A DNA stretch of 64,000 nt from positions 5,547 through 69,546 of the forward strand of contig CAYHTV010000001.1 of NCBI GenBank assembly GCA_964359575.1, given 5' to 3'. Shown here piece after piece: positions 9,446 through 61,038 of the stretch. The position numbers and the translations under genes are program-made. This stretch comes from an uncultured Planctomycetales bacterium. GTDB lineage: Bacteria > Omnitrophota > Gorgyraeia > Zapsychrales > GWA2-47-8. Position 1 is the first letter of the stretch. Each line of letters starts with the position of its first letter. Under the pieces are notes generated by a model. It did not search any database, had not been told where the DNA came from, and saw only the letters and a list, made by a program, of their open reading frames with translations.

Positions 9446-9549
9446 TTATTGACCTTTGTAGAACCAAAAGAATTGAGGTAGTCAATATTGGCCTTTGTCT
9501 CCTCAATGATAAATTAAAATTTTTTTCTTTAGTTGTACAAAGGCCCATA
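9446..9549 (+). mobile_element. MITE-like repeat family 1, copy 1 (~104 bp, imperfect TIRs TTATTGACCTTTGTAGAACC / GGGCCTTTGTACAACTA-rc, internal hairpin ATTGAGG...CCTCAAT)
   Basis: Near-identical sequence at 8 loci in both orientations; three CCTTTGT sub-motifs; intergenic. Confidence 0.8.
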
Positions 9550-9580
9550 AACGAAAATTGAAAAACTTCCAGTCTAAAGA

Positions 9581-9609
9581 TTGCAAAAGCAGATAACTGG
9601 TCGTATAAT
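9581..9609 (+). promoter_or_regulatory. Sigma-70-type promoter upstream of glgC (TTGCAA-17 nt-TATAAT)
   Basis: -35 TTGCAA at 9581-9586 and -10 TATAAT at 9604-9609, with an exact 17-nt spacer, about 50 nt upstream of the glgC start. Confidence 0.55.
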
Positions 9610-9656
9610 AATTGCCGTTTATAGCGGCTTAAGTCTGTCACAAAGAAGGATAAAAG

Positions 9657-10880
9657 ATGCGTGATGTTTTGACGTTTATATTGGCCGGGGGAAAAGGGGA
9701 GCGTTTGGACCCCTTAACGCGGGATCGGGCGAAACCCGCGGTTCCTTTCGGTGGGATTTACCGGATTATCGATTTCACTTTGAGCAATTGCATCAATTCT
9801 GGTTTGCGCAGGGTTTATGTGCTCATTCAATACAAATCGTTTTCTCTACAAAAACATATCCTCGCTGGCTGGGATGTCGTTTCCAGCCAGTTAGGGGAAT
9901 TCATTGATGTGATTCCTGCCCAACAGCGCATCGGTTCCGATTGGTACAAGGGGACCGCGGATGCGATCTATCAAAATATTTACGCAATCCAGGACCTTAA
10001 TGCGCGCATGGTCCTGGTCCTGGCCGGCGATCATATTTATAAAATGAATTACCGCAAGATGATTGATTACCATAAAGCCATGAACGCGGATGTGACGGTG
10101 GCGTGTGTCTTAATGCCCAAGGAAACCGCGAACAATTTTGGGGTCGTGGAGGTTGATTCTAAAAATCAGGTATGCGGTTTTCAGGAAAAGCCGCAAAATC
10201 CCAGAACCCTGCCGCGCGATCCGAGCCAAATTTTTGCCTCGATGGGAATTTATCTTTTTAATAAAGATGTGCTTTTTGAAGAATTAGAGATCGACGCCCA
10301 GTCGAAAATTTCAGAACATGATTTTGGGAAGAACGTGATCCCGCAGATGCTGCAGCATAAACGCAAGATTTATGTGCATAATTTCATTGATGAAAAAAAT
10401 AAGCCTTTGTATTGGCGGGACATTGGAACGCGCGATGCCTATTACCAGGCGAACATGGATTTAGTGCGCGAAAATCCGGCTTTTAATCTTTATGATAAAT
10501 CCTGGCCGGTGAGGACTTATCACGCGCAGTACCCGCCGATCAAGCTGGTCAGCGCGTCCACTCGGCAAAGTGTGAGCCGTGGTTCGGTTCTGGACTCCAT
10601 CATTGCGGGAGGGTGCGTGATCACGGGAGGGCATATTGAGCGGTCGATTCTTTCTCCCAACGTGCGGATTTATCATGAGGCGTCTATCGCGGATTCTATT
10701 TTAATGGAGGGTGTTATTGTGGGAGAGCATTCTAAAATAAAAAACGCGATCATCGACAAAGAAGTGAATATCCCGCCCCGTTCCGTGATCGGTTATGATT
10801 TGGAATTAGATAAAAAGCGTTTTGCCGTGACCACGTCAGGAGTTGTTATTGTGCCCAAAAAAACAGCCATCCCCGAGTAG
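9657..10880 (+). CDS. glgC: Glucose-1-phosphate adenylyltransferase
   Basis: N-terminal ILAGGKGERLDPLTRDRAKPAVPFGG nucleotidyltransferase motif and a C-terminal left-handed beta-helix domain; 407 aa. Confidence 0.9.
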   Translation: MRDVLTFILAGGKGERLDPLTRDRAKPAVPFGGIYRIIDFTLSNCINSGLRRVYVLIQYKSFSLQKHILAGWDVVSSQLGEFIDVIPAQQRIGSDWYKGTADAIYQNIYAIQDLNARMVLVLAGDHIYKMNYRKMIDYHKAMNADVTVACVLMPKETANNFGVVEVDSKNQVCGFQEKPQNPRTLPRDPSQIFASMGIYLFNKDVLFEELEIDAQSKISEHDFGKNVIPQMLQHKRKIYVHNFIDEKNKPLYWRDIGTRDAYYQANMDLVRENPAFNLYDKSWPVRTYHAQYPPIKLVSASTRQSVSRGSVLDSIIAGGCVITGGHIERSILSPNVRIYHEASIADSILMEGVIVGEHSKIKNAIIDKEVNIPPRSVIGYDLELDKKRFAVTTSGVVIVPKKTAIPE

Positions 10881-10894
10881 ATCATCGTTTGTAT

Positions 10895-10998
10895 TATGGG
10901 CCTTTGTACAACTAAAGAAAAAAATTTGGATTTATCATTGAGGAGACAAAGGCCAATATTGACTACCTCAATTCTTTTGGTTCTACAAAGGTCAATAA
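10895..10998 (-). mobile_element. MITE-like repeat family 1, copy 2 (reverse orientation)
   Basis: Reverse complement of the copy-1 sequence; lies between the glgC stop and the fabV RBS. Confidence 0.8.
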
Positions 10999-11016
10999 TA
11001 TAAAAAAGGGAACCTT

Positions 11017-12198
11017 ATGATTATTCAACCAAAAATTCGCGGATTTATTTGCACCACCGCCCACCCCGCCGGATGCGCGGCCAATGTGCAGAAGCAAATC
11101 GATTATGTTAAAGGCCAAGGACCTATTAAAAACGGCCCTACAAAAATTTTAGTGATCGGATCTTCCAACGGCTATGGTTTGGCCTCCCGAATTGTGGCGG
11201 CTTTTGGCTGCCAGGCCGCAACGGTTGGTGTTTTTTTTGAAAAAGAAGCGGAAGAAAAAAGGACAGCCACGGCAGGCTGGTACAATTCTATTGCTTTTGA
11301 TCGAGCCGCGAAAAAGGAAGGGCTGTATACCAAAAACTTCAATGGGGACGCGTTTTCCGATGAGATGAAAAAACAAGTTGTTGAAACAATTAAAAGGGAT
11401 TTGGGATCGGTGGATATGATCATGTACAGCCTGGCCGCTCCCCGACGGACACACCCGAAAACCGGAGGGATTGCGAAATCCGTGCTTAAACCCAAAGCTA
11501 TACCGTATACCAATAAATCTTTAGATTTTGATACGGATAAGCTTATTATGGTCACTTTGCAGCCAGCGAGCGAAGAGGAGATTCGCCAGACGGTTTCAGT
11601 CATGGGCGGGGAAGACTGGGAGATGTGGATTGATGGCCTGGATCAAGCAGGATGTTTAGCCAAAGGATGCATGACGGTTGCCTACTCTTATATTGGGCCG
11701 GACATTACAACCGCGGTTTATCGCAACGGAACGATTGGCGCGGCTAAGGATCACCTGGAAGCTACCGCGAAAAAATTGGATCAGCGGTTTAAAAAGATCG
11801 GCGGAAGGGCTTTTGTTTCCGTTAACAAGGCCTTAGTAACTCAATCCAGTTCCGCGATTCCATTTATCCCGTTATATTTTACAATTTTATCAAAAGTGCT
11901 TCGTGCCAAAGGAATCTACGAGGACTGCGTGCAGCAAATTTACCGTCTCTTTTCGCAGCGGCTTTATAACGGGCAGGGAATTCCGGTTGATGAAAAAGGC
12001 CGCATCCGCATCGATGATTTGGAAATGCGCGAAGATGTCCAGGAGGAAGTTAAAAAACTTTGGCAGCAGATCACGGAAGAAAATATTTCTCAAATAGCCG
12101 ATGTCAAAGGCTATCACGAAGATTTTTTAAAACTTTTTGGTTTTAGAGTTAAGGGTGTCGATTATCAAGCGGATGTTGACGCAGATATAAAGTTTTAG
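11017..12198 (+). CDS. fabV: Enoyl-[acyl-carrier-protein] reductase FabV (trans-2-enoyl-CoA reductase family)
   Basis: MIIQPKIRGFICTTAHPAGC N-terminus and GSSNGYGLASRI, characteristic of FabV/TER; 393 aa. Confidence 0.9.
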   Translation: MIIQPKIRGFICTTAHPAGCAANVQKQIDYVKGQGPIKNGPTKILVIGSSNGYGLASRIVAAFGCQAATVGVFFEKEAEEKRTATAGWYNSIAFDRAAKKEGLYTKNFNGDAFSDEMKKQVVETIKRDLGSVDMIMYSLAAPRRTHPKTGGIAKSVLKPKAIPYTNKSLDFDTDKLIMVTLQPASEEEIRQTVSVMGGEDWEMWIDGLDQAGCLAKGCMTVAYSYIGPDITTAVYRNGTIGAAKDHLEATAKKLDQRFKKIGGRAFVSVNKALVTQSSSAIPFIPLYFTILSKVLRAKGIYEDCVQQIYRLFSQRLYNGQGIPVDEKGRIRIDDLEMREDVQEEVKKLWQQITEENISQIADVKGYHEDFLKLFGFRVKGVDYQADVDADIKF

Positions 12199-12416
12199 CC
12201 TCCTCGCAGTTTTCTTGAATCCATAAAACCCAAATCAGTTAGCACTGTATTCCCTTTTTTACAGAATGTCATTTTATGTTAATAAGTGCGCATATATGCG
12301 GATTTATTGTGTTATGTGTATTAAATGTCAATAAAATAGATAATATAGTATAAAAAGTTAGAATTCCAAAGAAATTGTTGACATCTGTTTATATTTATAA
12401 TAAATTGACAATTGCT

Positions 12417-12523
12417 ATTATTGACCTTTGTAGAACCAAAAGAATTGAGGTAGTCAATATTGGCCTTTGTCTCCTCAATGATAAATCCAAATTTTTTTCT
12501 TTAGTTGTACAAAGGCCCATAAA
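12417..12523 (+). mobile_element. MITE-like repeat family 1, copy 3
   Basis: Same ~104-bp sequence, inside an AT-rich intergenic region. Confidence 0.8.
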
Positions 12524-12578
12524 TGTCTTCAAATCATTGAAAAAATATATGGTTGTGATATTTAGCAGTTAAAATTTT

Positions 12579-12761
12579 ATGCCATACGAAAATTTGCTAA
12601 CAATTGAGGAAGTGGCAAAATATCTCCGCGTGAAAAAGCGGACGATTTACGACTGGGTAAAAAAAGGAAAAATTCCAGCTATTAAAGCGGTCGGACAGTG
12701 GCGGTTTAAACGGGAAACAATCGATGCGTGGCTGGAGAGTATGAAAGAGAGTGTGAAATAA
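12579..12761 (+). CDS. Helix-turn-helix DNA-binding protein, excisionase (Xis/MerR-like) family
   Basis: 60 aa; LTIEEVAKYLRVKKRTIYDWVKKGKIPAIKAVGQWRF matches the excisionase-family HTH signature. Confidence 0.7.
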   Translation: MPYENLLTIEEVAKYLRVKKRTIYDWVKKGKIPAIKAVGQWRFKRETIDAWLESMKESVK

Positions 12762-12772
12762 GGAGGATAAAA

Positions 12773-13033
12773 ATGGCAATAGTAGATATTAATAATGTTG
12801 AAAAGGATATGCGCGAGCTTATCGCGGAAATTTTGGAAGGTGAGCCTTCCGATATCAAAGGGGAGGCCAATTTCGTGAAAGATCTTGGCATGGATTCGAT
12901 GATGGCTTTGGAAGTTTTGGCCGGCATTGAAAAAAAGTATCGTATTGTTATTCCTGAGGATCTGTTACCAAAATTTACCGATTTGAATGCCACGGTCACG
13001 ATCGTAAAAAAATTATTGGCTAATAAGAAATAA
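12773..13033 (+). CDS. Acyl carrier protein
   Basis: The track ORF starts at 12728; trimmed to the ATG at 12773, which is preceded by an AGGAGGA RBS; DLGMDSMMALEVL phosphopantetheine-attachment motif; 86 aa. Confidence 0.8.
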   Translation: MAIVDINNVEKDMRELIAEILEGEPSDIKGEANFVKDLGMDSMMALEVLAGIEKKYRIVIPEDLLPKFTDLNATVTIVKKLLANKK

Positions 13034-13087
13034 ATTTTAATAACTCTCCATTCGCAAGCACAGTAAAGAAAAAGGGAGGAGCGACGA

Positions 13088-16000
13088 ATGTATTTTAAAC
13101 GGCTGGAGATCTTTGGTTTCAAATCATTCGCGGATAAAACAACTCTTAATTTTGAGCCGGGGATCACCGCCATCGTGGGGCCTAATGGATGCGGCAAGAG
13201 CAATGTCTTTGATTCGATCCGCTGGGTTTTAGGAGAACAAAGCGTCAAAGAATTGCGCGGTTCGACGATGGAGGATGTTATTTTTAATGGGACCGATAAA
13301 AAACCTGCCCTGGGATTTGCCGAGGTCAGCCTCACCTTTTCCAATGAAGCGAAAATGTTGCCCATCGAATACGATGAAGTCACGGTGACCCGGCGGCTTT
13401 TCCGTTCGGGAGAAAGCGAATATCTCCTCAATAAAAGTGTCGTGCGTCTGCGCGACATTCAGGAGTTATTTATGGGAACGGGAGTCGGCGCAGAGGCTTA
13501 TTCGCTCGTCCAGCAGGGAAAAGTGGATCTGGTGGTGAGCGCGCGCCCTGAGGACCGCCGCATGATTTTGGACGAGGCCTCCGGCATCACCAAATATAAA
13601 TCCAAGAAAAAAGAGGCCTTGAACCGGCTCAAAGATACCGAAAATAATTTATTGCGCATCAATGACATTATTATCGAAGTCAAGCGGCAGATTGCCTCCA
13701 TTGAACGCCAGGCGACCAAGGCGAGAAAATATAAAGAAGAATTTCAGAAGTTGCAGAGTTTAGAAGTTCAATTGGCCCGGCACCAGTTGAAAAGGAACGC
13801 AGATGAGAAGAGCCAACTGCAGAATCAATTGAATGAGCTGCGCGAGCAAGAGTCGCGGTTGAGCCAAGAATTAACGGAAAATGGCAGTCTTTTAGAGAGC
13901 CAAGGACAATTGCTCAGCGACTTAGAGCAGAAGATCAATGAGCTTCATAGTGAAGATATTAAACTGGAAAGTCAACTGGATATCAATAACCGCCAAATTG
14001 GTTTTAATGAAGAGCGTATTGCGAACTTAACGGATACAGAAGTTCGCCTGGTCGAAAAGAAAACTCAGCTTCTGGAGCGCTGCCGTAAAGAGCAGGAGCG
14101 CATTGAAGAATTAAAGCAGGGTCTGGTGAGGCTAAGCGGCGAGCTGCAAGAAAAGGTGCAAGCCTTGCGCACAAGAAAAGAAAATTTAAATAGCATTACC
14201 ATTTCTGTTGCGGAGGCGCAGAGATCTATCCTCCAGTATGAAGAGAACATTCTCAACGTTACTTCAAAACAGGTGAGTATTAGAAATGAACTCACCGAAG
14301 TGATGAAAGAAATTCAAGGCTGCCTGGCCCGTAACCGCCGTTTGGAATTGGAAAATACCAAAGTTTCTTCAGAAAAACAAGAAGTGGATGAAAAATTACA
14401 GGCGATTTCGCAGCAGCTTCAGAAGGCCTTAGAAATATTGACCGGCCTGAGGGTCGAACAGGAAAACAATAATCAGATTTTAAATGATCTCAACGGCCAG
14501 TTGGGAATCTTGGAGCAGGACATCAACAGTTTGGAAAAAAATAAATTTTCGCTCGAATCGCAAAGGGAATTTATTGAAAAACTGCAAGTGCAATACAAAG
14601 ATATCCCCGATCCGATTATTGAGGGGCGGCTTATCACTTCCACACCGCCTTCAGAAAAGCATACCGGGATTATTGGAAAAGTTAAAGATGTGGTGGAGCT
14701 TGACCCGCAGCGGGCGGAGGTCATTCGTAACAGTTTTCAGGACTCAAATCGGGAGCATCTTTTTGAAGTCTATTGCGAAGCGAAATTTATTGAGCTGGAT
14801 CCCCAGCAGATTATCGACCGGATTCAACGGATACATGAAGAAATTGTCTTAAAACAAGAGCAGCGCCGAGAATGGGTAGCCAAGATCGAAGAACAAAAGT
14901 CCCGCAATGACGAGATCGATAAGGCCATATATGATGAAGAAAAAGTCATCTCAATCCTGGAATCGCAGAAAAAAGACATTCTGGATGATATGAACAAATT
15001 GCTCAATGAGCTGGAGTTGGTCGATAGCGAGCTCGGCGAAGTCAGGGAATCCTTAAATCACTTGAAAAAGAAAGAAGAAGAGTTAATCTTCCATTTTGAT
15101 ACTTTGGCGCAGGATTTGACATCTTACCAGAATAATATTAAAGAACGTCAGAATTTTATCAGTTTTAAGCGCCAGCAGAAGGAAGAGGTTACGGTGGCGA
15201 TTGCGCAACTAGAGACGGAAGTGGAATCGGGACGGGAAAAACAAAAAGCCCAATTGGAAAATTTAAATCTTTTCGAGCAAGGCCTTGATCAGGAGTTAGG
15301 AGAGATTAAGAAATTTGATGATGAACAGGCCGAGTACTTGCAGAAACGGGAACAGTTTCAAAATGAAATTGTTCAGCTGCAAGAAACCATTGAGCGGCTC
15401 AAAGATCAGAAGCAGTCTTTGAAAAATATTCTTATTGAGCAGGAACGTGAGAAGGCGGAAGTTCTTCAACGGCTCAATGGCTTCCGGGCGCATATGGCTT
15501 CACTGGAAGAGGAGATCATTGAAATTAAGCAAGCCTTGCATAGCCAAGAAATGAAGGAGCAGGAAATTTCCTTCAATGAAAGGGGGATTAAAGACCGCTT
15601 AGTACAGGCTTATCGGATTAATCTGGATGAGATGGCGGAGGATGCCTTGCCAGCGCCTGTTGGGGAGATTCCCGTTGGCTCGGATGAATTTATCGGTCAA
15701 GTTGAGCGTCTGAAAAAGCGCTGTGAGTCTTTTGGCTCGGTGAATTTGGTCGCGATTGAAGAATTTGAAGAATTAAAACAGCGGTTTGAGTTTTTAACCA
15801 AGCAGCAAAGCGATCTTTTGGAAGCGAAGGATTCGCTGCATAAAACTATCACGCAGATCAACCGTAAGACCCGTCAGATGTTTATGGAGACCTTCACCCG
15901 GGTCAGCGAAGAATTTAGGATTTATTTCCGGATGCTTTTTGGGGGAGGGGAAGCCCAGTTGGTTTTGTTAGATCAAGAAAATGTTTTAGAATCAGGTATT

Positions 16001-16369: not shown

Positions 16370-16375
16370 ATCATC

Positions 16376-16479
16376 TATTGACCTTTGTAGAACCAAAAGA
16401 ATTGAGGTAGTCAATATTGGCCTTTGTCTCCTCAATGATAAATCCAAATTTTTTTCTTTAGTTGTACAAAGGCCCATAA
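16376..16479 (+). mobile_element. MITE-like repeat family 1, copy 4
   Basis: Sits between the convergent stops of smc and the GGDEF gene. Confidence 0.8.
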
Positions 16480-16494
16480 GATTTCCAGCTGAGA

Positions 16495-18590: not shown

Positions 18591-18627
18591 CATTCATACC
18601 GTTGCAGTGTTTACCCGCGCGCGACAC

Positions 18628-18730
18628 TATGGGCCTTTGTACAACTAAAGAAAAAAATTTGGATTTATCATTGAGGAGACAAAGGCCAATATTGACTACC
18701 TCAATTCTTTTGGTTCTACAAAGGTCAATA
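18628..18730 (-). mobile_element. MITE-like repeat family 1, copy 5 (reverse orientation)
   Basis: Immediately upstream of dnaG. Confidence 0.8.
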
Positions 18731-18744
18731 AGAAATTAATAGCC

Positions 18745-20523
18745 ATGGGAATGATTCCACAAGAAATTATCCGAGAGATCGTAGAGCGCGCCGATATCGT
18801 TACGACAGTGACTGCCTATATCCCGCTTAAACGGGCCGGGCGTAATTATAAGGCATTGTGCCCTTTTCATAATGAAAAGACGCCCTCGTTTGTGGTAAAT
18901 CCGGATAAGCAGATTTTTCATTGTTTTGGTTGCGGCGAAGGAGGAAATGCTATTACCTTTGTCATGAAACAAGAGCATTTGGATTTTCCGGAGGCGGTTC
19001 GCCGGATGGCCGAACGCGCGGGGATCACGATCCCTGAGCGAGAAACAGTCAATCCTCAAGTCAAGGATCGCAAGCAAGCTATCTCCCACGCGCATGAGCT
19101 GGCCGCGCAATTTTTTCATCACCATTTGATGGCCAGCCGGGATGACGCAGCCACACAGGCCAGAGATTATTTGAAGCAGCGCGCGGTAAGCTTGGAAATT
19201 GTTGAAAAGTTTAAGTTGGGTTTTGCGCCGGATCAGTGGGACAGCTTGTTAAATTTTTTGAGAAAGAAAGATATTAATGCCGGCCTCATGGAGAAGGCGG
19301 GGCTCATTATCGCACGCGAGAAGCAGGACGGCCATTATGACCGGTTCCGCAACCGTATTATGTTTCCGATCTTTGATGTTAAAGGGCAGTGTGTCGCGTT
19401 CGGCGGCCGGGCAATAAAAAAGGACGACGCGGCAAAATATATCAATTCGCCAGAGACCGAAATTTATGTGAAGGGCCAGCATTTATACGGCCTGCCGATA
19501 GCTAAGCAGGCGGTGGCGCAGGAAGACGCGGTTGTTGTTGTCGAAGGATATATGGATTTCATTATGCCGTATCAAGCGGGAGTGTCTAATGTGGTGGCCT
19601 CGCTGGGGACAGCCTTAACGGTTGAACAAATCCGGCTGCTCCGGCGCTATACCCGTAATATTATCATGCTGTATGATACGGATAAGGCAGGAGAGTCGGC
19701 TACGCTGCGCAGCCTTGATTTGCTCATTGAGGAGGGAATGAATGTTAAGGTCGCCACTTTGACTCAAGGTGATGATCCGGATTCCTTTGTCCGCAAATTT
19801 GGCGCAGCGGCTTTGCGCGAGCGAATTGAGAAAGCGCAGAGTTTATTTGATTATAAATTGGCGGCTTTAAAGCAGCATTTCGATAGCCGGACGGTGGAAG
19901 GCCGGGCGCAAATATCGGGTGAGATGCTCACCACGATCAATAAGTTTGAGAATGCCATTATCAAATCTGAGTATATGAAGCAATTAGCTCAGGCGTTAGC
20001 AATTTCTCAGGAAGCGTTGATCGCGCAGCTGCAGAAGATGCTTTCCAATTCGCGCCGTGAATCGAAAGAGCTGCCGCGGTCGAGAGTTATCAGTAAGGAA
20101 CCGCCGCGCCGGGTCGAAGAAAGCATCCTCAAATTGCTGATGGAAGGCGAAAATTTTGTCCAATTGACCAAAGAAGAAATTTATTTATCAGATTTTCGCG
20201 ATGAAAATATCCGCGCGATCATCAATGAAATTTTTAAATTGTTTGACGGCGGGAAGGAAATCAATCCCTTGGTGTTAATGAATAGCTTTGACGATCAGCG
20301 CATTCGTAATATCATTGCGGGTTTGACGGTCCACGAAGAAACCATGGTCGTTGATAAAAATAAAATGCACCGCGATTGCTTAGATCGGATTATTCACGAG
20401 CGCCTCAAATCGCAGCGTCAGGAACTGCTGGTGAAAATCCGTTCGGCCGAGGTCACCGGAAATCAGGATATTCTTAACCAGCTAAAAGAGCAGTATAACC
20501 AATTGATTAAAAATAGAGGTTAA
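18745..20523 (+). CDS. dnaG: DNA primase
   Basis: CHC2 zinc finger (CPFHNEKTPSFVVNPDKQIFHCFGCGEGGNAITF) and a TOPRIM domain; 592 aa. Confidence 0.95.
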   Translation: MGMIPQEIIREIVERADIVTTVTAYIPLKRAGRNYKALCPFHNEKTPSFVVNPDKQIFHCFGCGEGGNAITFVMKQEHLDFPEAVRRMAERAGITIPERETVNPQVKDRKQAISHAHELAAQFFHHHLMASRDDAATQARDYLKQRAVSLEIVEKFKLGFAPDQWDSLLNFLRKKDINAGLMEKAGLIIAREKQDGHYDRFRNRIMFPIFDVKGQCVAFGGRAIKKDDAAKYINSPETEIYVKGQHLYGLPIAKQAVAQEDAVVVVEGYMDFIMPYQAGVSNVVASLGTALTVEQIRLLRRYTRNIIMLYDTDKAGESATLRSLDLLIEEGMNVKVATLTQGDDPDSFVRKFGAAALRERIEKAQSLFDYKLAALKQHFDSRTVEGRAQISGEMLTTINKFENAIIKSEYMKQLAQALAISQEALIAQLQKMLSNSRRESKELPRSRVISKEPPRRVEESILKLLMEGENFVQLTKEEIYLSDFRDENIRAIINEIFKLFDGGKEINPLVLMNSFDDQRIRNIIAGLTVHEETMVVDKNKMHRDCLDRIIHERLKSQRQELLVKIRSAEVTGNQDILNQLKEQYNQLIKNRG

Positions 20524-20549
20524 AACTTTTTGGAATTTTTAATTTTTTT

Positions 20550-20682
20550 AGGAAAGCCATACAGCAAAGAAGTTACGACGCACTTACTTTTCTAAAAATT
20601 ATTAGAGGAAGTAAGTGCTGTACTGATTTCCTCTAAAATATTTAAGGGAAAATCAGTACGAACGAAGTGAGGAGTTTTCTTG
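20550..20682 (+). repeat. Structured repeat family 2, copy A (composite: AGGAAAGCCATACAGCAAAGAAG... two inserted hairpins ...GAACGAAGTGAGGAGTTTTCTTG)
   Basis: Shares its 5' module with copy D and the 3' module CGAACGAAGTGAGGAGTTTTCTTG with copies B, C and D; the inserted hairpins have CTAAAA(A)TATT loops. Confidence 0.7.
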
Positions 20683-24396: not shown

Positions 24397-24854
24397 TGAA
24401 AGTTTTGGAAATATTTACCGATGGGGCGTGCCGCGGCAATCCGGGGCCGTCAGCCATCGGGGTGGTTATTAAGGAAAACGGCAAGGTTGTTAAAAAGATT
24501 GCACAATCAATAGGGGAAGCCACCAATAATATTGCCGAATACACGGCCTTAGTTTGCGCCCTGAAGGCGGCGGCAGGGCTTAAAGCCCAGCAGTTAAAAA
24601 TTTATACCGATAGTGAACTGCTTTATTATCAGTTGACCGGCACCTATCAGATTAAAAATGAGAATTTGAAATTACTTTTTGCTAAGGCTCAGGAAGCGGG
24701 GAAGAAATTTGAGCATATCCAAATTAAGCGTATTCCCCGTGAGCAAAATCAAGACGCCGATAAGTTGGCGACCCAAGCTATAAAAAAAGAGCAGGCCAAG
24801 GTGGTTGCCTCGGTGTTTTACACCGGGGAGGAAAGTCCGAGCTCCGCAGGATAA
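24393..24854 (+). CDS. rnhA: Ribonuclease HI
   Basis: LEIFTDGACRGNPGPSAIGVV, IAEYTALVCAL and IYTDSELL catalytic motifs of the RNase H fold; the last ~22 codons overlap the rnpB 5' region. Confidence 0.85.
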   Translation: MMKVLEIFTDGACRGNPGPSAIGVVIKENGKVVKKIAQSIGEATNNIAEYTALVCALKAAAGLKAQQLKIYTDSELLYYQLTGTYQIKNENLKLLFAKAQEAGKKFEHIQIKRIPREQNQDADKLATQAIKKEQAKVVASVFYTGEESPSSAG

Positions 24855-25263
24855 TGTATCCCGGTAATGCGGGACGATCCTAGTACTGTGTTTCCGAAAT
24901 TATGTACATAGAGGGACACAGTACTGTACTATGTTCCTCTGAATAAAATTAAAGTAACATAGTACTGGTTTATCGATTGAATAAAATCAATCAGTGGAAA
25001 TCTAGGAACGGATTAGAGCTACAGTGACGATGATCTCGGTGTTTACATCGAGGGAAGTGAAACGAGCAATCTCTACATGGAGCAAGGCCAAATAGGAAGA
25101 GAGCCTTAGCAAAATAATGGGGCACGAATCGATCCGGTTCGTTATTATCTTCGGGTAGGCTGCAAGAGTCAAGAGAGTAATCTCTTAGAGTGAGTGAGAT
25201 AACTACCCCTCATGCCTAAAAACATCATGAGGAACATAACTCGGCTTATTGGTCTGCTCAATT
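24786..25263 (+). ncRNA. rnpB: RNase P RNA (bacterial type A)
   Basis: GGAGGAAAGTCCGAGCTCC (P4 5' strand) at 24826-24844; CCCGGTAATGCGGG; GGAGCAAGGCCAAATAGG at 25079; CGGGTAGGCTGC; ACATAACTCGGCTTATTGG (P4 3' strand) with compensatory change CCGAG/CTCGG relative to E. coli CCGGG/CCCGG; P1 pairing AAGAGCAGGCCAA (24787-24799) with TTGGTCTGCTCAA (25248-25260); about 476 nt including an expansion around 24880-24960. Confidence 0.8.
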
Positions 25264-25266
25264 ATC

Positions 25267-25371
25267 TATGGGCCTTTGTACAACTAAAGAAAAAAATTTG
25301 AATTTATCATTGAGGAGACAAAGGCCAATATTGACTACTTCAATTCTTTTGGTTCTACAAAGGTCAATAAT
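25267..25371 (-). mobile_element. MITE-like repeat family 1, copy 6 (reverse orientation)
   Basis: Lies between the rnpB 3' end and the yebC RBS. Confidence 0.8.
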
Positions 25372-49140: not shown

Positions 49141-50739
49141 TTGCCAAGACTATGCTCGCGAGGGTCTATGAAAAAATTTTTAATCATTATGTTAGGACTG
49201 GCAGCGATGATTCCATTCGGTTTTGCAAATTCAGAAATTAAAGAACCCAATGTCAGCGGGAAATTTTATGATGCCGACCCCAAGCGTCTGGCTGCTGCGG
49301 TTGATACTTTTATTAACCGCGCCGAGGTTGCGGACTTGGATAAAAATATCGCGATGATTATTGCTCCGCACGCTGGGTATATTTATTCCGGCGCGGTTGC
49401 GGGATACAGTTTTAAGGCAGCGCGCCGCGGGCAATATAAGACGATCGTTATTATCGCGCCGAGTCATTTTTATGGATTTGACGGAATTTCGATTTGGCCG
49501 GAAGGAGGGTTTCAAACACCGCTGGGAATCGCGCCGGTCGATCACGATTTTACGCAGAAGCTCATCGGCCGTAATGAAAAATTTTATTTTGACGCCTTGG
49601 CGTTTGAGCAAGAGCATGCGCTGGAGGTCGAAATCCCATTTTTGCAAAGAACCTTCAGTGATTTTAAGATTGTGCCGGTCGTGATGGGACAGCCGACATT
49701 TCAGACATGCGAGGCCTTTGCCGCGGCGTTAAAAGAAAACATTGGCGAGCGAGATGATGTCTTGGTTGTGGTCAGCACAGATTTGTCGCATTATCACGAT
49801 GATACCTTTGCCCGCGCAATGGATCAGCGGACGTTAGCCATGGTCAAGGCAGGCGACGCGAAGGAATTGTGGAAACAGTGCCGCCTGGGAACAATGGAGA
49901 TGTGCGGCTTTGTGCCGGTCACCACGGCATTATTGTACGCCAAGCTGCAAGGTTTGCGGGATGTGGAAATCGCGCGTTATGCCAATTCTGGGGATGTGAC
50001 CGGTGATCGGCACAGCGTGGTGGGGTATGCGTCGGTTATTTTTTACAGCATAGGAAAGTATAAAACTTTCCTAGCTGCTAAAAACTCCTTTCCTATGCAG
50101 CAAAGAAGATGCGACGAACGAAGTGAGGAGTTTTCTTGTGCGCCGGCCGCTGGAGACCAAGAGGGGCTGCTCAGTCTGGAACAAAAGAAAAAATTATTAT
50201 CGATCGCGCGTAAATCCATTGAAAACCACGTGCGCACTGGCACAAAATTGGGGATAGAGGAATCTGATCCTCGTCTTTTCAAAGAGGAAGGGGCTTTTGT
50301 GACGATTCATCGGCAGGGACGATTGCGTGGGTGCATCGGGAATATTATTGGGCAGGGTCCATTGTATCTTACTGTGCGCGACATGGCGATTACCGCGGCT
50401 TCGCGTGATCCGCGATTTCAACCCGTGAGCGAGGAAGAATTGAAAGATATTACGGTCGAGGTCTCGGTTCTCTCGGAGCCCAAACCCGTCAAGGACATGG
50501 ACGAAATTGTCATGGGTGTGCATGGCGTTATTGTGAGCCGAGGAGCGCATCATGGAGTTTTTTTGCCGCAGGTAGCGACCGAAACCGGCTGGAGCCAAGA
50601 AGAGTTCCTCGCACAGCTGTGTGAACAAAAAGCCGGCCTGCCGCGGGACTGCTGGAAAGACCATCAAACGCGTTTAGAAATTTTCACCGCCCAAGTTTTT
50701 GCCGAGAAAGATATAAATTATGGGCCTTTGTACAACTAA
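49141..50739 (+). CDS. Memo-like (AmmeMemoRadiSam system protein B) fused in frame to an AMMECR1 domain (protein A); real start probably the ATG at 49168
   Basis: N-terminal half has IIAPHAGYIYSG...APSHFY...DLSHYHDD (MEMO1/extradiol-dioxygenase-like); C-terminal half has GAFVTIHRQGRLRGCIG...HGVIVSRGAHHGVFLPQV (AMMECR1); the 94-bp repeat family 2 copy B is translated in frame between them; the stop codon lies inside MITE copy 7. Confidence 0.7.
   Translation: MPRLCSRGSMKKFLIIMLGLAAMIPFGFANSEIKEPNVSGKFYDADPKRLAAAVDTFINRAEVADLDKNIAMIIAPHAGYIYSGAVAGYSFKAARRGQYKTIVIIAPSHFYGFDGISIWPEGGFQTPLGIAPVDHDFTQKLIGRNEKFYFDALAFEQEHALEVEIPFLQRTFSDFKIVPVVMGQPTFQTCEAFAAALKENIGERDDVLVVVSTDLSHYHDDTFARAMDQRTLAMVKAGDAKELWKQCRLGTMEMCGFVPVTTALLYAKLQGLRDVEIARYANSGDVTGDRHSVVGYASVIFYSIGKYKTFLAAKNSFPMQQRRCDERSEEFSCAPAAGDQEGLLSLEQKKKLLSIARKSIENHVRTGTKLGIEESDPRLFKEEGAFVTIHRQGRLRGCIGNIIGQGPLYLTVRDMAITAASRDPRFQPVSEEELKDITVEVSVLSEPKPVKDMDEIVMGVHGVIVSRGAHHGVFLPQVATETGWSQEEFLAQLCEQKAGLPRDCWKDHQTRLEIFTAQVFAEKDINYGPLYN
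50045..50138 (+). repeat. Structured repeat family 2, copy B (inside CDS, in frame)
   Basis: ACAGCATAGGAAAGTATAAAACTTTCCTAGCTGCTAAAAACTCC...CGAACGAAGTGAGGAGTTTTCTTG; translated as SIGKYKTFLAAKNSFPMQQRRCDERSEEFS; contains an internal ATG and a GAGGAG-7nt-GTG arrangement. Confidence 0.75.
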
Positions 50740-50823
50740 AGAAAAAAATTTGAATTTATCATTGAGGAGACAAAGGCCAATATTGACTACCTCAATTCTT
50801 TTGGTTCTACAAAGGTCAATAAA
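50719..50823 (-). mobile_element. MITE-like repeat family 1, copy 7 (reverse orientation)
   Basis: Its first 21 nt encode the last 6 codons and the stop (YGPLYN*) of the Memo-AMMECR1 ORF. Confidence 0.8.
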
Positions 50824-52686: not shown

Positions 52687-52695
52687 TTTTTTTTT

Positions 52696-52789
52696 ACAGC
52701 ATAGGAAAGTATAAAACTTTCCTAGCTGCTAAAAACTCCTCTCCTATGCAGCAAAGAAGTTACGACGAACGAAGTGAGGAGTTTTCTTG
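52696..52789 (+). repeat. Structured repeat family 2, copy C
   Basis: Near-identical to copy B; intergenic. Confidence 0.75.
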
Positions 52790-52846
52790 TTAATAATAAA
52801 AGCGGTGTGGTAATATAGCGATGGATTTAAAAATAAGGGGCTGTCC

Positions 52847-53314: not shown

Positions 53315-53315
53315 A

Positions 53316-55813: not shown

Positions 55814-55842
55814 ATTGCTAACGGGATTGCTGGACTTTGCAA

Positions 55843-55871
55843 TTGACAAAGCCTATGGCCGCTCTTAAAAT
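55843..55871 (+). promoter_or_regulatory. Sigma-70-type promoter upstream of asmA (TTGACA-17 nt-TAAAAT)
   Basis: -35 at 55843-55848 and -10 at 55866-55871. Confidence 0.5.
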
Positions 55872-55907
55872 AACGGGGGTTTGCGAAAAGTATATATAAG
55901 GAAATCC

Positions 55908-57770
55908 ATGAAAAGTCTTAAAATTGCAGTAACGATTATTTTTAGTCTTTTGGCGGTACTCTTGGCGGCCGTGTTCTTTTTTCTCAAGACGGTGGATATC
56001 AATAATTTCAAATCCCAGATCATTGCCCAATTGGAGGCGGCCGTGGGGCGGGACGTATCAATTCAGAACATGGCCTTTTCGCTGTCTTTTCAAAAAGGTA
56101 TTATTTTGAATGTCGAGGGGCTAACGATGGCCAATGATCCTGGGGAAGTTGAAAAGAATTTTCTTGAAGTGGAACGCATTGGCGTGGAAGTGGATTTTAT
56201 GGCGTTGTTGCGCGAACGGAAGATTTCCGTCAAAAGTGTGCAGGTCCATTCCCCTAAGATTGTGATTATTCGCTCAGAGGCAAATGTCTTGAATGTCCAG
56301 ACATTAGGCAATGCGTCTGCGGCTAAAGCAGTAGCAGCCGCGAATAATGTTCCTGTGCCATCTCCTTCACCGGTACCCCTAAGTGACATTTCCACTAAAA
56401 CCATTAACCTCGACACCTTGCCGGCCTTGCTCGTTAAGTCCATGGCCCTGGATAACGGAACTTTGGTTTATATTGATCGAGCTATAAAACCAGAGATGTC
56501 GATTGTTGTTTCAAAGATTGATGTAGAAGTGGCAAATTTTTCGCTTAAGGACAAATTCCATTTTTCTGTGGCAGGCGCGATTTTGGGAAAACAGCAAAAC
56601 GTACATATAGAAGGTCAAGCGCAATTGGATTTAATAAATTCGCAGGCCCGTTTGGAGAGGACAAAAATAGCCGTGGATTTATCGCAGCTGCTGCGCGATG
56701 AGCTCATGCAGATAGGGCCGATGCTGGATAGTCTCGAACTGGTCGGGCAGTGGAGCGGCCTGCTGGAGGCGGATTTAAATCAAATGGTCGCTGGAGCGCA
56801 AGGGATTATGGCGTTGTCTTTGGAAGGTCAGCTTAAAGAGGGAAGGGCGAGCGTCAATGTTTTAGCCAAGCCGTTAGAAAATATTCATGCTGTTTTTAGC
56901 GCGACCGAAGCGGATTTTACAATTAAAGATTATTCGCTCAATATCGGCACGGGGAAAATTTTTGGAGAAGCGAAGTTGAGCGATTATCTTGAAGCGGCGA
57001 ATTCCAGCCTCACCATCAATTTAGAGGACATTAAGATTGAAGAAGTGCATGATGCCGAGACGCTGCCGGTGAAAGCGCAAGGGAATATTTTTGGCCAGTT
57101 TAAAATTCAGGCGCGAGGATTGGATCCAAAAGTATTTTTACAAACCTTGACCGCCGATGGCGCAGCGGAAGTCCGCGAGGGGAAAATTGTTGATATCAAC
57201 GTGTTGAGCTCGGTGTTGGATAAACTTTCCGTTGTGCCGCCTTTGGCCGGTATTAAAGATAAAATTCAGGCGGGCCTGCCGGAGAAGTATCGCGGCGTTT
57301 TAGAGCAAAGGGATACCAATTTCCAAAAAATTCAATGTGCGGTTAATGTGAAAAATGAGACTGCCAGCCTTACCCGCGTCAATATTCAATCTGATGGCTT
57401 TGGAATGGCGGCCAACGGCACGTGTGATTTTAAACAAATTCTGCATCTGGAATCAGCGTTTGCGATAGCGCAGGATCTCTCGGCTGCTATGGGGACGGCA
57501 ATTCCGGAATTGCAGTTGTTATTTGATCAAGCCGGACAAATTTATATTCCCATGACGACCTACGATGGGCCGGCGGCCAAAATGAAGGTCTTCCCGGATC
57601 CGGTTTATTTAGTGAAGCGCGTCATTGCCAATAGGGGACAAGAGGAGCTGCAAAAATTGATCAACAAGGCGTTAGGGACAGAGGAATCGTCCGAAGAACC
57701 TTCTTCCGGCGAAGAGAAACCCTCGGAACAAAAAATCATTAGCGATATCTTACAGTCGATCTTCCAATAA
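55908..57770 (+). CDS. asmA: AsmA family protein
   Basis: The track ORF starts at 55881; the ATG at 55908 is preferred because it follows an RBS and the predicted promoter; N-terminal TM anchor and a long beta-rich periplasmic domain typical of AsmA. Confidence 0.65.
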   Translation: MKSLKIAVTIIFSLLAVLLAAVFFFLKTVDINNFKSQIIAQLEAAVGRDVSIQNMAFSLSFQKGIILNVEGLTMANDPGEVEKNFLEVERIGVEVDFMALLRERKISVKSVQVHSPKIVIIRSEANVLNVQTLGNASAAKAVAAANNVPVPSPSPVPLSDISTKTINLDTLPALLVKSMALDNGTLVYIDRAIKPEMSIVVSKIDVEVANFSLKDKFHFSVAGAILGKQQNVHIEGQAQLDLINSQARLERTKIAVDLSQLLRDELMQIGPMLDSLELVGQWSGLLEADLNQMVAGAQGIMALSLEGQLKEGRASVNVLAKPLENIHAVFSATEADFTIKDYSLNIGTGKIFGEAKLSDYLEAANSSLTINLEDIKIEEVHDAETLPVKAQGNIFGQFKIQARGLDPKVFLQTLTADGAAEVREGKIVDINVLSSVLDKLSVVPPLAGIKDKIQAGLPEKYRGVLEQRDTNFQKIQCAVNVKNETASLTRVNIQSDGFGMAANGTCDFKQILHLESAFAIAQDLSAAMGTAIPELQLLFDQAGQIYIPMTTYDGPAAKMKVFPDPVYLVKRVIANRGQEELQKLINKALGTEESSEEPSSGEEKPSEQKIISDILQSIFQ

Positions 57771-57814
57771 ACCCCGATAGAGAGCGCAGTTTTCTATCGG
57801 GATAAATTCCATCC

Positions 57815-58321
57815 ATGAAGAATTTTAAATTTCGAGGGAAAGTCATTACCGTCACGCGCAAAAGAGCGCGCCTGCCCAACGGTCATGTGAGCGAACTTGA
57901 TTTGGTTGAGCATCCAGGCGCGGTACTGCTCGTGCCCTTTGTCAATGCGCGAGAGATTTTGCTGCTGCGGCAGTACCGGCCGGTGATTGGGAAATACCTT
58001 TATGAATTACCTGCGGGAACTTTAAAGCCTAAGGAAAGCGCCCTCTCCTGCGCTCAGCGTGAATTAGCCGAAGAGACGGGTTACGCGGCTAGGAAAATTT
58101 CGCTGTTGGGAAGGATTTATCCAGTGCCTGGTTATTCGACGGAAATTATTTTTATTTACCAAGCAACACAGCTTATCGAAAAGGCGCTTCCCAAAGAACC
58201 GGATGAAGTGATTGCGGTGCATCGTTTTGGGAAAGCGCGGGTTGTCGAAATGTTTAAACGCGGCCAGATCAGCGATGCCAAGACGATTTGCGCGCTTGCC
58301 TTCTGCGGCTGGCTCAATTGA
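57815..58321 (+). CDS. NUDIX hydrolase (ADP-ribose pyrophosphatase-like)
   Basis: Nudix box GTLKPKESALSCAQRELAEETGY. Confidence 0.85.
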   Translation: MKNFKFRGKVITVTRKRARLPNGHVSELDLVEHPGAVLLVPFVNAREILLLRQYRPVIGKYLYELPAGTLKPKESALSCAQRELAEETGYAARKISLLGRIYPVPGYSTEIIFIYQATQLIEKALPKEPDEVIAVHRFGKARVVEMFKRGQISDAKTICALAFCGWLN

Positions 58322-58332
58322 GGAAAATTCAA

Positions 58333-58836
58333 ATGAAAGAACCGTATCTGTGTATCGCCAACGATGTGAAGCTGGGAAAGAATGTGAAGCTTTCCAAATT
58401 TATTAATTTGTACGGCTGCACCATTCAAGACAATACAAAAATAGGCGCTTTCGTGGAAATCCAAAAAGGCGCGGTCATCGGAAAAAATTGCAAAATTTCG
58501 TCGCACACGTTTATTTGCGAGGGCGTTACCATCGGGGAAGGGTCTTTTGTCGGGCATGCGGTGGTATTTATCAATGACAATCATCCGCGCGCAGTCAATC
58601 GTTGGGGAATTTTAGAGAATGAAAAGGAATGGAAACCCCGCTTTGTGAAAACCAAAATCGGAGAGCAGGTTTCGATCGGCAGCAATGTCACAATTTTGGG
58701 AGGGATCATGATTGGCGATGGTGCTGTGGTTGGTGCCGGATGTGTTGTCACAAAGAATATCCCGGCCGGCGAGGTCTGGGTCGGCAATCCCGCGCGCTTT
58801 TTGCGGAAGGTTGAGAAAAAAAATCTGCACATTTAA
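58333..58836 (+). CDS. Hexapeptide-repeat (left-handed beta-helix) acetyltransferase
   Basis: The track ORF starts at 58288, inside the NUDIX gene; trimmed to the ATG at 58333 after a GAGGAAA RBS; repeated [LIV]G-x4 hexapeptides (IGKNCKI, IGEGSFVG, IGDGAVVGAG). Confidence 0.8.
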   Translation: MKEPYLCIANDVKLGKNVKLSKFINLYGCTIQDNTKIGAFVEIQKGAVIGKNCKISSHTFICEGVTIGEGSFVGHAVVFINDNHPRAVNRWGILENEKEWKPRFVKTKIGEQVSIGSNVTILGGIMIGDGAVVGAGCVVTKNIPAGEVWVGNPARFLRKVEKKNLHI

Positions 58837-58978
58837 AATCTCCTTGTCATTTTGCCAGGGTGGGCGTATACTTGTTTTCCAGATGATGGCCACCATGTCA
58901 GAAATCAATTTGCCACCCAGGGGCCTTCAGACATAAAATTTATCAGAAATACACATTTGAAAAAGGAGTAATGAAGAA

Positions 58979-60028
58979 ATGAGCTGGGATGCACAAAGTA
59001 CTGTCACTGAAATGCGCCGTGGTTTAAGAATTAAAGAGAGTTTGCCAGTCAGATGGTCCACTCCCGAAGGTGAAACAGGCGAGGGAAAAATATTAAATAT
59101 TAGCACCTCGGGCCTGCTCTTAGATACCAATAAAGATTTTTCTCCGGTCGAGCAGGCCAGATTTTCTTTAGAATCACTGGGACTTAGCAATGGCCATTTC
59201 CTTCCTCAAGAGGGGCGCCTCGTTTGGTCCAAGAGCCAAGGAGCACGCAATAATCGTTTGTGTGGAATTGAGTTTGTCCAGCCGGAAGAGAAGGTCGTCT
59301 CTCACTTGCGCGAAAGAGTGCAAAACGGAATTACCAAAGCCGCCAATACCCGCCGCGTTCACAGCATTATCGGAACCATCCTGTTTATCATCATGACTGG
59401 CTTAACAATTTTTTCTCTCTATCAGTACAATAAAAATTATCGTAATATTGACCAAACCAATCAGGCATTAACCAGCGCGTACGAACAGCAAGCGGCTTTG
59501 TCAAAATATTATGCGGATGAAGTGGCATCCACCAAAATTTTATTGGCCCAAGCGGAAAAAGATTTGGAAGAAGCCAAACAGGACAATGACCAGCTTAAGA
59601 ACTTAGTCAGCGCGCGCGATAATGAAATTACTCAAAATAAAATTGTGATTGAGCAGCTTAAGAACTTAGTCAGCGCGCGCGATAATGAAATTACTCAAAA
59701 TAAAATTGTGATTGAACAGCTTAACACGGAAATTCAGACGATTAAGGAACGGCTGCGTATTTTAGAAGGTGATGTGGTGAATCTCGATGAAGGCCGCTCA
59801 ACGGTGGCCCTTTATAAGCAAAAGGTTCATAAAGTTAAAGGAAAAATTCATGAATTTAAGGAGCAGGCCCACGCCGCCAGAGTCGCCGCTCAAAAAGAGC
59901 GAGACCGCATAGCAGTCGCCTTAGGCAATAACGGTTATCTTATTAAAGGTGGAAAACCTTTTAACCCCAATTATTCCGCGGTTAAATCTCCCCAAAATAT
60001 CGAAATTAACGTTGAGTTTGTAAAGTAA
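58979..60028 (+). CDS. PilZ domain protein with TM segment and coiled-coil containing a 21-codon tandem duplication
   Basis: PilZ motifs RRGLR...NISTSGLLL; TM helix; 63-bp near-perfect tandem repeat at 59591-59716. Confidence 0.65.
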   Translation: MSWDAQSTVTEMRRGLRIKESLPVRWSTPEGETGEGKILNISTSGLLLDTNKDFSPVEQARFSLESLGLSNGHFLPQEGRLVWSKSQGARNNRLCGIEFVQPEEKVVSHLRERVQNGITKAANTRRVHSIIGTILFIIMTGLTIFSLYQYNKNYRNIDQTNQALTSAYEQQAALSKYYADEVASTKILLAQAEKDLEEAKQDNDQLKNLVSARDNEITQNKIVIEQLKNLVSARDNEITQNKIVIEQLNTEIQTIKERLRILEGDVVNLDEGRSTVALYKQKVHKVKGKIHEFKEQAHAARVAAQKERDRIAVALGNNGYLIKGGKPFNPNYSAVKSPQNIEINVEFVK

Positions 60029-60150
60029 TTGAAGATTTATTTCCTCGTTTGAAAAAGGCAGATGGAAACAGTTGCCTTTTTTATTTCTATAAATATAATA
60101 AGCACGTGCCTTTATTTGAAGAATCCCGCCAGTTATTTTCCGTTTCGGGT

Positions 60151-60861
60151 ATGGCCATTCCATATACGCTGAGGCATTCGTCTAAGCGTCAAAGTCTAGC
60201 AATCAGAATTGAAGAGGATGGCGGGGTGCGCGTTTTGGCGCCGGCACGGTTGGATGAACCGGTGATTGAGCGTTTTCTGCAGCAAAAACATAATTGGATT
60301 CATAAAAAAGTTGGCCAGGCGAAAGCGCGTTTTCAATATCTTAGCCAGCGTGCTTTTAGCGATGGACAAGAGTTTCCGTTTTTGGGGCGAAAATTTAGAA
60401 TTACAATTGATAGAGCCAATATCGCGCGAGTTCAAGTGATTTTTGACGGCAGTCAATGGCTGATTCGCCTGCCGGAAGTTGAATCAGGCGAGCCGCACCG
60501 CACGCACATCCGGCCCAAAATGATTCAATGGTATCAGCAGCAGGCCAAAGAGATCATTGGCGGGCGCGTTTGGCATTACGCGCGGATTATGAATGTGCAG
60601 CCGCAGACAATTGCCATCCGAAATCAACGAAGGATTTGGGGGAGCTGTGATTACCGTAAAAAAAGTATTCGGTTGAATTGGCAGATTGTGATGACGCCGC
60701 TTTCGGTGATTGATTATGTTGTTGTTCATGAATTGTGCCATTTGGCGGTCCCCAACCATTCGCCGCGTTTCTGGAGAAAAGTCGCGCAGGTCATACCGGA
60801 TTATCTGCATCGGCAAAAATGGTTAAAAGACAATGCGTGGGAGTTGATCCTGCCCTCATGA
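60151..60861 (+). CDS. YgjP-like metal-dependent hydrolase (DUF45/M48-like, HExxH)
   Basis: VVHELCHLAVPNHSPRFW signature; start trimmed from 60049 to the ATG at 60151. Confidence 0.7.
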   Translation: MAIPYTLRHSSKRQSLAIRIEEDGGVRVLAPARLDEPVIERFLQQKHNWIHKKVGQAKARFQYLSQRAFSDGQEFPFLGRKFRITIDRANIARVQVIFDGSQWLIRLPEVESGEPHRTHIRPKMIQWYQQQAKEIIGGRVWHYARIMNVQPQTIAIRNQRRIWGSCDYRKKSIRLNWQIVMTPLSVIDYVVVHELCHLAVPNHSPRFWRKVAQVIPDYLHRQKWLKDNAWELILPS

Positions 60862-60903
60862 ACCTCGAAGTCAAAGTGATCCCGCAAGCCAGAAAGAATT
60901 CCA

Positions 60904-61038
60904 TTATGGGCCTTTGTACAACCATTAGCAATAATTTTAAGAGAACAAAGCGACCTGCCTGATGAGCTCGTCTTATGACGAGCTCATCAGGCAGGAATAT
61001 TGACTACCTTCTGCTTTTAGTTAAGCAAAGGTCAATAA
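60904..61038 (-). mobile_element. MITE-like repeat family 1, copy 8 (diverged, with an inserted 40-bp perfect palindrome)
   Basis: Termini TATGGGCCTTTGTACAAC and AATATTGACTACC...CAAAGGTCAATAA are conserved; the interior carries CCTGCCTGATGAGCTCGTC-TTAT-GACGAGCTCATCAGGCAGG. Confidence 0.65.

Follow-up and report, generated by a model that had tools for sequence, protein, structure and literature searches.

What is the repeat of about 100 bp that recurs eight times in a 64,000-nt stretch of contig CAYHTV010000001.1 from an uncultured Omnitrophota bacterium (hereafter, the window), and did it reach its sites by moving? The original prediction, made from the letters alone, took it for a mobile element resembling a miniature inverted-repeat transposable element (MITE) with a TA target. 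Comparison with related genomes bears this out, given that empty orthologous sites were found whose boundaries fit TA insertion with TA duplication. The repeat is very probably a MITE, that is, a non-autonomous, non-coding DNA transposon of this bacterium that inserts at TA and has spread recently. It is an ordinary kind of element, of a family not previously described in Omnitrophota.

Proteins of the window are found in identical form on contigs from the Hainich groundwater wells (ENA ERZ129262x, "Hain_H52") and on an NCBI contig of 74,101 nt, and their nearest named relatives are Omnitrophota/Omnitrophica metagenome-assembled genomes (MAGs). Allowing one mismatch, a 50-nt probe from the element hits seven sites in the window, compared with zero expected from 100 shuffles. 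Repeat finding, multiple alignment with flanks and nhmmer with three family queries recover the same eight loci, within 1-2 nt of the coordinates predicted originally, and no further diverged copies. The seven main copies, present in both orientations, consist of a 99-nt core with a TA on each side and are 97-100% identical, such that only 3 of the 103 TA-inclusive positions vary and four of the seven copies are the same. The identity above 95% that had been claimed for all eight copies accordingly holds for these seven but not for the copy reported at 60904, which is a subfamily member with a diverged interior that keeps the termini and the GTAGTCAATATT core and carries a palindrome with a perfect 19-bp stem. 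In all eight copies, similarity breaks off sharply at TA/TTGACC and GGCCCA/TA, and the flanks read T-TA ... TA-A/G. The copies stand 2-40 nt from start or stop codons; their density averages about one per 8 kb across the window and rises to one per 2.7 kb in the most crowded 16 kb, which holds six of them.

The evidence for mobility comes primarily from orthologous sites. A DnaG search led to a syntenic relative, Omnitrophica WOR_2 bacterium RIFCSPHIGHO2_02_FULL_48_11 (DnaG 79% identical), in which contig MHGP01000073.1 (L035) matches the gene order of the window at about 9-31 kb (TPR, glgC, ter, HTH, acpP, SMC, GGDEF on the minus strand, cvpA, NIF3, dnaG and rpoD), the synteny running on to the RNase P RNA, yebC, ruvC and ruvA. 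None of the six window copies in the shared 22 kb is present in L035, and nhmmer searches of this contig and of two other relatives detect no member of the family. The glgC-ter gap is 136 nt long in the window vs 30 nt in L035, and subtracting the element and one TA leaves GTAT-TA-ATATAAAAAAGGG in the window, compared with GCGTTAATTATCAAAGGG in L035. Similarly, the gap between the SMC and GGDEF genes is 125 nt vs 18 nt, and the same subtraction yields CATC-TA-AGATT, compared with TTCTTAAGTG. Upstream of the HTH gene, the promoter and AAATTGACAATTG are common to the window and L035, and the element follows directly in the window; at the conserved 3' end of the RNase P RNA, CGGCTTATTGGTCTGCTC, the element lies within 9 nt in the window and an ordinary spacer is found in both relatives, so that the site of copy 6 is empty in two of them. 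At these last two sites, conserved sequence adjoins the insertion point on one side. Altogether, seven of the window copies are missing from the orthologous site in L035, L034 or L037, and such presence and absence with defined junctions is evidence of insertion, as expected of a prokaryotic MITE. The junctions, as aligned, place the insertions at a TA dinucleotide, usually in the context T-TA-A. Empty sites contain a single TA and filled sites a TA on both sides of the element, which we read as a 2-bp target-site duplication of TA, a pattern that an element carrying one TA of its own would produce as well.

One site lies in a gene. The open reading frame (ORF) 49141-50739 encodes a Memo-AMMECR1 fusion protein with the C-terminus ...AEKDIN-YGPLYN, of which copy 7 encodes YGPLYN and a new stop codon at 50737-50739. 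Among the 44 orthologues listed, 42 stop one or two residues past a conserved K/E-D/N-V/I motif, which corresponds to a stop right after ...DIN in the window. In L034, where the protein is 71% identical, a TAA is located exactly where the window has TA/TGGGCC, and the next gene there, orthologous to its window counterpart (78% identical), begins 11 nt past this stop. When the element is taken out of the window together with one TA, the sequence reads GAT ATA AAT TAA again, for which exactly one TA is needed. Given that the stop is restored by this removal and that L034 has TAA at the same point, the element landed in the TA of the stop codon; by this comparison, copy 7 is an insertion that now supplies six codons and a new stop. 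The original claim that every copy is intergenic does not hold for this one, the only site with read-through of the element, which itself contains no ORF. The same gene also harbors, at 50036-50139, a copy of a different repeat (the third family below) in the linker between the two domains, read in frame (...YSIGKYKTFLAAKNSFPMQQRRCDERSEEFSC...). This linker is about 20-30 residues longer than in the orthologues, and the sequence there looks like an intragenic repeat insertion that has been tolerated.

Near-identity among the copies could in principle also come from gene conversion homogenizing old repeats, in place of recent transposition. With six copies within 16 kb and four identical, short-range conversion could contribute. 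However, relatives lack the element at all six clustered positions and at the Memo position, with precise single-TA junctions there, which makes the insertions younger than the split from those lineages, and we consider conversion of old repeats to be very unlikely as the explanation. Because six copies are absent from the syntenic relative, the high identity points to lineage-specific recent spread and not to ancient conserved repeats. Of the two possibilities raised originally, recent spread or concerted maintenance, the former is thus favored, and the latter is disfavored by the absence of the insertions from relatives.

The anatomy of the element is as originally described: the terminal inverted repeats (TIRs), TTGACCTTTGTAGAAC... 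and ...GTTGTACAAAGGCCCA, are imperfect and match at 17 of 21 positions (TTATTGACCTTTGTAGAACCA vs TTATGGGCCTTTGTACAACTA), and the claimed ATTGAGG/CCTCAAT stem and three (G)CCTTTGT motifs are likewise confirmed. By inspection, the element can be parsed as a putative composite, TA, sub-unit 1, TA, sub-unit 2, TA, in which sub-unit 1 is the part kept across genera, with the internal TA directly after it, and sub-unit 2 includes both the second and the third CCTTTGT motifs. The outer terminal motifs are TTGACCTTTGT and ACAAAGGCCCA, and the inner one is TTGGCCTTTGT. In this two-sub-unit parse, there are three CCTTTGT motifs because these are the outer-left, inner-left and outer-right copies of one terminal motif, GRCCTTTGT.

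Scans for exact matches to the terminal motif uncovered relatives of the element, 50-200 nt long, on nine contigs of the same Rifle MAG, in another WOR_2 MAG, in two Planctomycetales-labelled MAGs and on several JGI metagenome contigs. Common to them are the AAGGWAGTCAA arm and the left terminus TTATTGACCTTTGTACAAC, with the 19-nt left terminus kept between genera, but the rest of the sequence differs. Wherever both ends fall in fetched sequence, the flanks are TTA ... TAA, and an A follows the right-hand TA in each of the 16 Rifle-type elements with a fetched right end (L003-L006, L009-L012, L021, L023, L025-L027, L029, L031 and L032). The Rifle elements comprise sub-unit 1, TA and then a second TIR-bounded unit, CCAGGTCTTTTC...GAAAAGACCAG; in some copies, an extra unit of 68 nt with TIRs at its ends, CATGCCTT...AAGCCATG, is nested where the two meet at TA, and further forms include a 50-nt deletion form (L003/L023) and a solo sub-unit 1 (L007). 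A reciprocal case is also found: a related 185-nt element, L006, lies between two ABC ATPase genes of the Rifle genome and gives the upstream gene its stop codon, and no element interrupts the orthologous site in Hainich (L038), where the sequence is TAA GTAAA ATG. This site, filled in Rifle and empty in Hainich, indicates that the family inserted independently in both lineages. Plasmid and phage collections yielded no match to the element by BLASTN, and a pattern scan of IMG/VR produced 47 chance matches, none confirmed by nhmmer.

This mosaic, modular organization recalls bacterial interspersed mosaic elements (BIMEs), and sub-unit 1 is a 37-nt imperfect palindrome of the size of repetitive extragenic palindromic (REP) sequences that contains GTAG. 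The repeat could accordingly be a REP/BIME-like or IS200/IS605-derived palindrome, moved as single-stranded DNA (ssDNA) by a Y1 transposase (REP-associated tyrosine transposase, RAYT, or TnpA) and inserted 3' of TTA with no duplication, and filled and empty sites alone do not separate a duplicated TA from one TA within the element. The constraint on the two flanks, T-TA ... TA-A, is nevertheless symmetric, which fits a palindromic TTAA/TA target and not a one-sided ssDNA target. The ssDNA transposons linked to BIME/REP insert with strand bias, whereas the window copies (three on the plus and five on the minus strand) show none within a single replichore with monotonic GC skew. Furthermore, GTAG is not kept in the Rifle relatives, no Y1 transposase was seen, the junctions show the TA duplication pattern, and the element has true TIRs, so that it fits neither REP/BIME sequences, which are palindromes of 20-40 nt with a conserved GTAG-type tetranucleotide on the 5' side, nor IS200/IS605-type palindrome-associated transposable elements, which have sub-terminal hairpins and no TIRs. 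We regard such an origin as highly improbable. Several other identities were discarded: a piggyBac-type TTAA duplication and a 3-bp TWA duplication, because the TTA...TAA flanks are inverted and not direct, and attC sites, because the core motifs do not fit and the neighbors are housekeeping genes.

Whichever strand is folded, and whether as RNA or as DNA, the whole element is predicted to form a long hairpin (z about -4), the outcome of a folding check that the original prediction had proposed; the stems are invariant among the relatives found, so that covariation is uninformative. A stable predicted hairpin located 2-40 nt from start or stop codons, with a 19-nt terminus conserved between genera, might be expected of a functional structured RNA or cis-regulatory module (a terminator, leader or small RNA) held near-identical by selection. 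Against this stand the mixed orientations relative to flanking genes, in both the window and the Rifle genome, and the empty orthologous positions, which show that the element is not a conserved regulatory feature of those genes. In addition, Rfam gave no match at the gathering score, and a permissive search gave only generic hairpins at the noise level (12-25 bits vs cut-offs of 44-249). A consensus scan of the element detected no promoter, outward ones included, and no canonical terminator geometry, and an identity as outward promoter or terminator was rejected. We consider a selected RNA module to be very unlikely. Copy 3 is predicted to lie within the 5' leader of the HTH_17 gene 12579-12761.

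What, then, moves the element? No transposase domain was detected (Pfam) in any of the window ORFs tested, in agreement with the original prediction, or in the few short host contigs read. An approximate TIR search of all fetched loci found no pairs 0.7-3 kb apart. Exact TIR scans, which miss diverged TIRs and do not cover the host genome beyond the window, gave only 50-200-nt elements and chance matches. Four loci were considered as parent candidates (L014, L015, L016 and L018), but they have only the 19-mer in common with the element and look like chance matches, L016 less clearly so than the others. The ORFs next to L014 do not resemble an IS630-type transposase, as judged without a Pfam search, and L016 has a second ATTGACCTTTG 44 nt further in, where the contig ends.

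Several points weigh against identification of the repeat as a recently active MITE. No autonomous element or transposase with these termini is present in the window or in about 270 kb of fetched loci, and no parent turned up when 185,579 species genomes, JGI metagenomes and IMG/VR were scanned for exact patterns, a search that diverged ends would escape. The empty sites belong to different species (of a related genus or species) and not to the same population; in every Hainich contig examined that contains glgC, ter, Memo or yebC, the site is filled, and no polymorphic empty site was found. The comparison of filled and empty sites also does not formally separate TA duplication from insertion of a TA-carrying element beside another TA.

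We infer a mechanism in which a transposase encoded elsewhere in the genome would bind the repeated GRCCTTTGT terminal motif and move the element in trans by cut-and-paste. TA duplication is a hallmark of IS630/Tc1-mariner elements and of their MITEs, such as RUP (PMC2229807), which makes this group the best guess, and by analogy we consider the chances that the mobilizing enzyme is a DDE transposase of the IS630/Tc1-mariner type to be roughly even. TA-targeting units may pile up at the duplicated TA, after which the composite would move by its outer ends, and further small TA-bounded modules appear to nest at sub-unit junctions in the elements of sister genomes. The effects would be by-products of insertion, namely, the six-codon gene extension, a long hairpin in operon spacers and in a 5' leader and, possibly, deletion of a neighboring gene. 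A bolder scenario, which we think improbable, is an Omnitrophota-wide superfamily of "orphan" MITEs, in which a TA-bounded hairpin unit of about 36 nt, TTGACCTTTGTACAAC-N10-AAGGWAGTCAA, would recruit a transposase that has ceased to belong to any recognizable insertion sequence, for instance a host-resident or domesticated enzyme, with TA-bounded palindromic modules stacking at the duplicated TA into mosaic repeats. If real, such a superfamily would be the DDE-type counterpart of the REP/RAYT-BIME system.

At the locus of copy 5, a NIF3/DUF34 gene (about 320 codons long) lies between cvpA and dnaG in two relatives (L035 9048-10001; L037 851-1816). This gene is absent from the whole window, with no detectable remnant, and the junction 18591-18744 holds copy 5, to which the deletion may be linked. 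Next to copy 6, the match to the RNase P RNA (24788-25264) spans 477 nt vs the 367 positions of the model; the RNase P RNAs of L035 and L037 likewise have long extra helices, with AT-rich palindromes in L037, so that the gene appears to contain lineage-specific insertions.

Across the window, which also includes genes for this class A RNase P RNA and two tRNAs, housekeeping genes are nearly all on the plus strand, and the GC skew is steadily positive. The element interrupts short-read assemblies of the Hainich population, in which contigs stop within it: L001, the same as window 9496-12470 in sequence, has both of its ends inside element copies. An additional copy occupies a new site in the population (L024). 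L038 (12973-13240) departs from the window sequence past copy 2 and passes into a second repeat family and then into a MITE copy with other flanks; it is probably a chimera assembled across repeats, unless the alternative arrangement is real. A second copy of the variant subfamily is located on L041, 3.7 kb past the end of the window, with the palindrome loop flipped and a different right tip. The 4-nt loop of the 42-nt palindrome is ATAA in the window (60954-60995) and TTAT in L041 (6440-6481); the palindrome thus occurs in two orientations, or its loop was flipped.

Other repeats were noticed as well. The second palindromic MITE-like family, of about 125 nt (ACGTCATGTGCGAGTTT...GTGTCATTACGAGGAGCCGCAAGGCGACGAAGTAATC...GATTGCTTCGCTTCGCTCGCAATGACAC...AAACTTGCACACGGCGT), is represented at window positions 1-114 (beginning before the window), in L024 and in L038 (12976-13095); it is 100% identical in at least three Hainich places and adjoins a copy of the main element in L024 and L038. 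The third family consists of two hairpins, CAGCATAGGAAAGT/ACTTTCCTAGCTG and AAAACTCCTC/GAGGAGTTTT. A PilZ-domain ORF (58979-60028) contains an in-frame 63-bp tandem repeat, in two copies 98% identical, at 59587-59712. Across this repeat, contig L040 of the Hainich population aligns with an overlap of 75 nt, which suggests that its copy number varies between strains or assemblies.

Table 1. Element copies, the sub-units of copy 1 and further repeats in the window (coordinates of element copies include the flanking TA on both sides).
Feature	Position	Strand	Description
MITE copy 1	9447-9549	+	TA + 99-nt core + TA; starts 13 nt past TPR gene stop, upstream of conserved glgC promoter
Sub-unit 1 of copy 1	9449-9485	+	37-nt hairpin TTGACCT...AGGTAGTCAA with outer left terminal motif TTGACCTTTGTAGAAC; parse by inspection
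Sub-unit 2 of copy 1	9488-9547	+	TTGGCCTTTGT...ACAAAGGCCCA, with its own 10/11 terminal inverted repeat; parse by inspection
MITE copy 2	10895-10997	-	occupies the glgC-ter gap
MITE copy 3	12419-12521	+	just 3' of conserved TTGACA-17-TATAAT-like promoter of small HTH_17 gene (12579-12761)
MITE copy 4	16376-16478	+	between convergent SMC-like and GGDEF genes
MITE copy 5	18628-18730	-	between cvpA and dnaG
MITE copy 6	25267-25369	-	begins 2 nt beyond the RNase P RNA match (Rfam); 24 nt separate its end from yebC
MITE copy 7	50719-50821	-	in TA of TAA stop codon, Memo-AMMECR1 gene
Variant-subfamily copy	60905-61037	-	129-nt core, same termini, diverged interior, 42-nt perfect palindrome at 60954-60995
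Third repeat family	50036-50139, 52687-52790		two 104-nt copies, 96% identical
Third repeat family, longer relatives	20518-20682, 61183-61359		upstream of rpoD and yqeY

Omnitrophota are known chiefly from metagenome bins, and these observations document what appears to be a recent expansion of MITEs in this phylum. The insertions changed a protein C-terminus, placed a strong hairpin between co-transcribed genes and between a promoter and its gene, and coincide with gene loss. Knowledge of the repeat family aids binning and scaffolding, since the copies break short-read assemblies, and the copies could act as strain markers in Hainich groundwater time series. The main value of the finding lies in assembly and strain tracking of uncultured genomes and in the documented rewriting of a stop codon by a MITE; the understanding of how MITEs work is unchanged.

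A literature search returned no paper linking MITEs with Omnitrophota, and a 2024 RefSeq-based census of prokaryotic MITEs does not mention the phylum (PMC11602168). The element has the generic features of prokaryotic MITEs, being shorter than 300 bp, non-coding and multi-copy, with TIRs and a target-site duplication, the latter subject to the one-TA ambiguity. Among known systems, the Correia/NEMIS (CREE) elements of Neisseria have a short form of about 107 nt and longer forms with an internal block, TIRs and TA at the ends with duplication of the target; most are intergenic, often near coding ends, their transcripts form a long hairpin, and no cognate transposase is known (PMC2229807). The Omnitrophota element is alike in size, TIRs, TA termini, hairpin, proximity to genes and the lack of a known transposase. 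The host phylum of Correia is unrelated, and no sequence resemblance was noticed, although no formal alignment was made. The IHF site and outward promoters of Correia were not found in the Omnitrophota element, as judged by the promoter scan, and its TIRs are shorter and imperfect, with the terminal motif present for a third time inside.

RUP of Streptococcus pneumoniae, with Correia the nearest analogue, likewise forms a long hairpin and is found near genes. It is a non-coding 107-bp element with a TA target, located between genes, in which the similarity of copies has been taken as a sign of recent mobility (PMC2229807). RUP is an IS630-Spn1-dependent MITE, its TIRs matching an IS630-family element in the same genome, whereas no such partner was found for the Omnitrophota element. 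The eukaryotic Stowaway MITEs, which derive from Tc1/mariner elements, are likewise small and have TIRs, a TA target-site duplication and hairpin potential; by analogy, the link would be one of mechanism only. The likeness to Correia and RUP, too, is one of the way of working and does not imply homology, and this is the sense in which the resemblance to Correia seen originally stands, that is, for function (size, TA duplication and hairpin).

The resemblance to BIME/REP that had been suggested alongside it is not supported, given the strand-biased partners of those repeats and their lack of a target duplication; BIME/REP units are linked to RAYT enzymes and have no target duplication (PMC2817692). 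BOX elements of pneumococcus and the BIMEs of enterobacteria are modular mosaics, and the Omnitrophota relatives, with their variable number of palindromic modules, are built in a similar manner. Unlike in BIME/REP, a TA borders every Omnitrophota module, and comparison with empty-site junctions reveals a duplicated TA around the complete unit.

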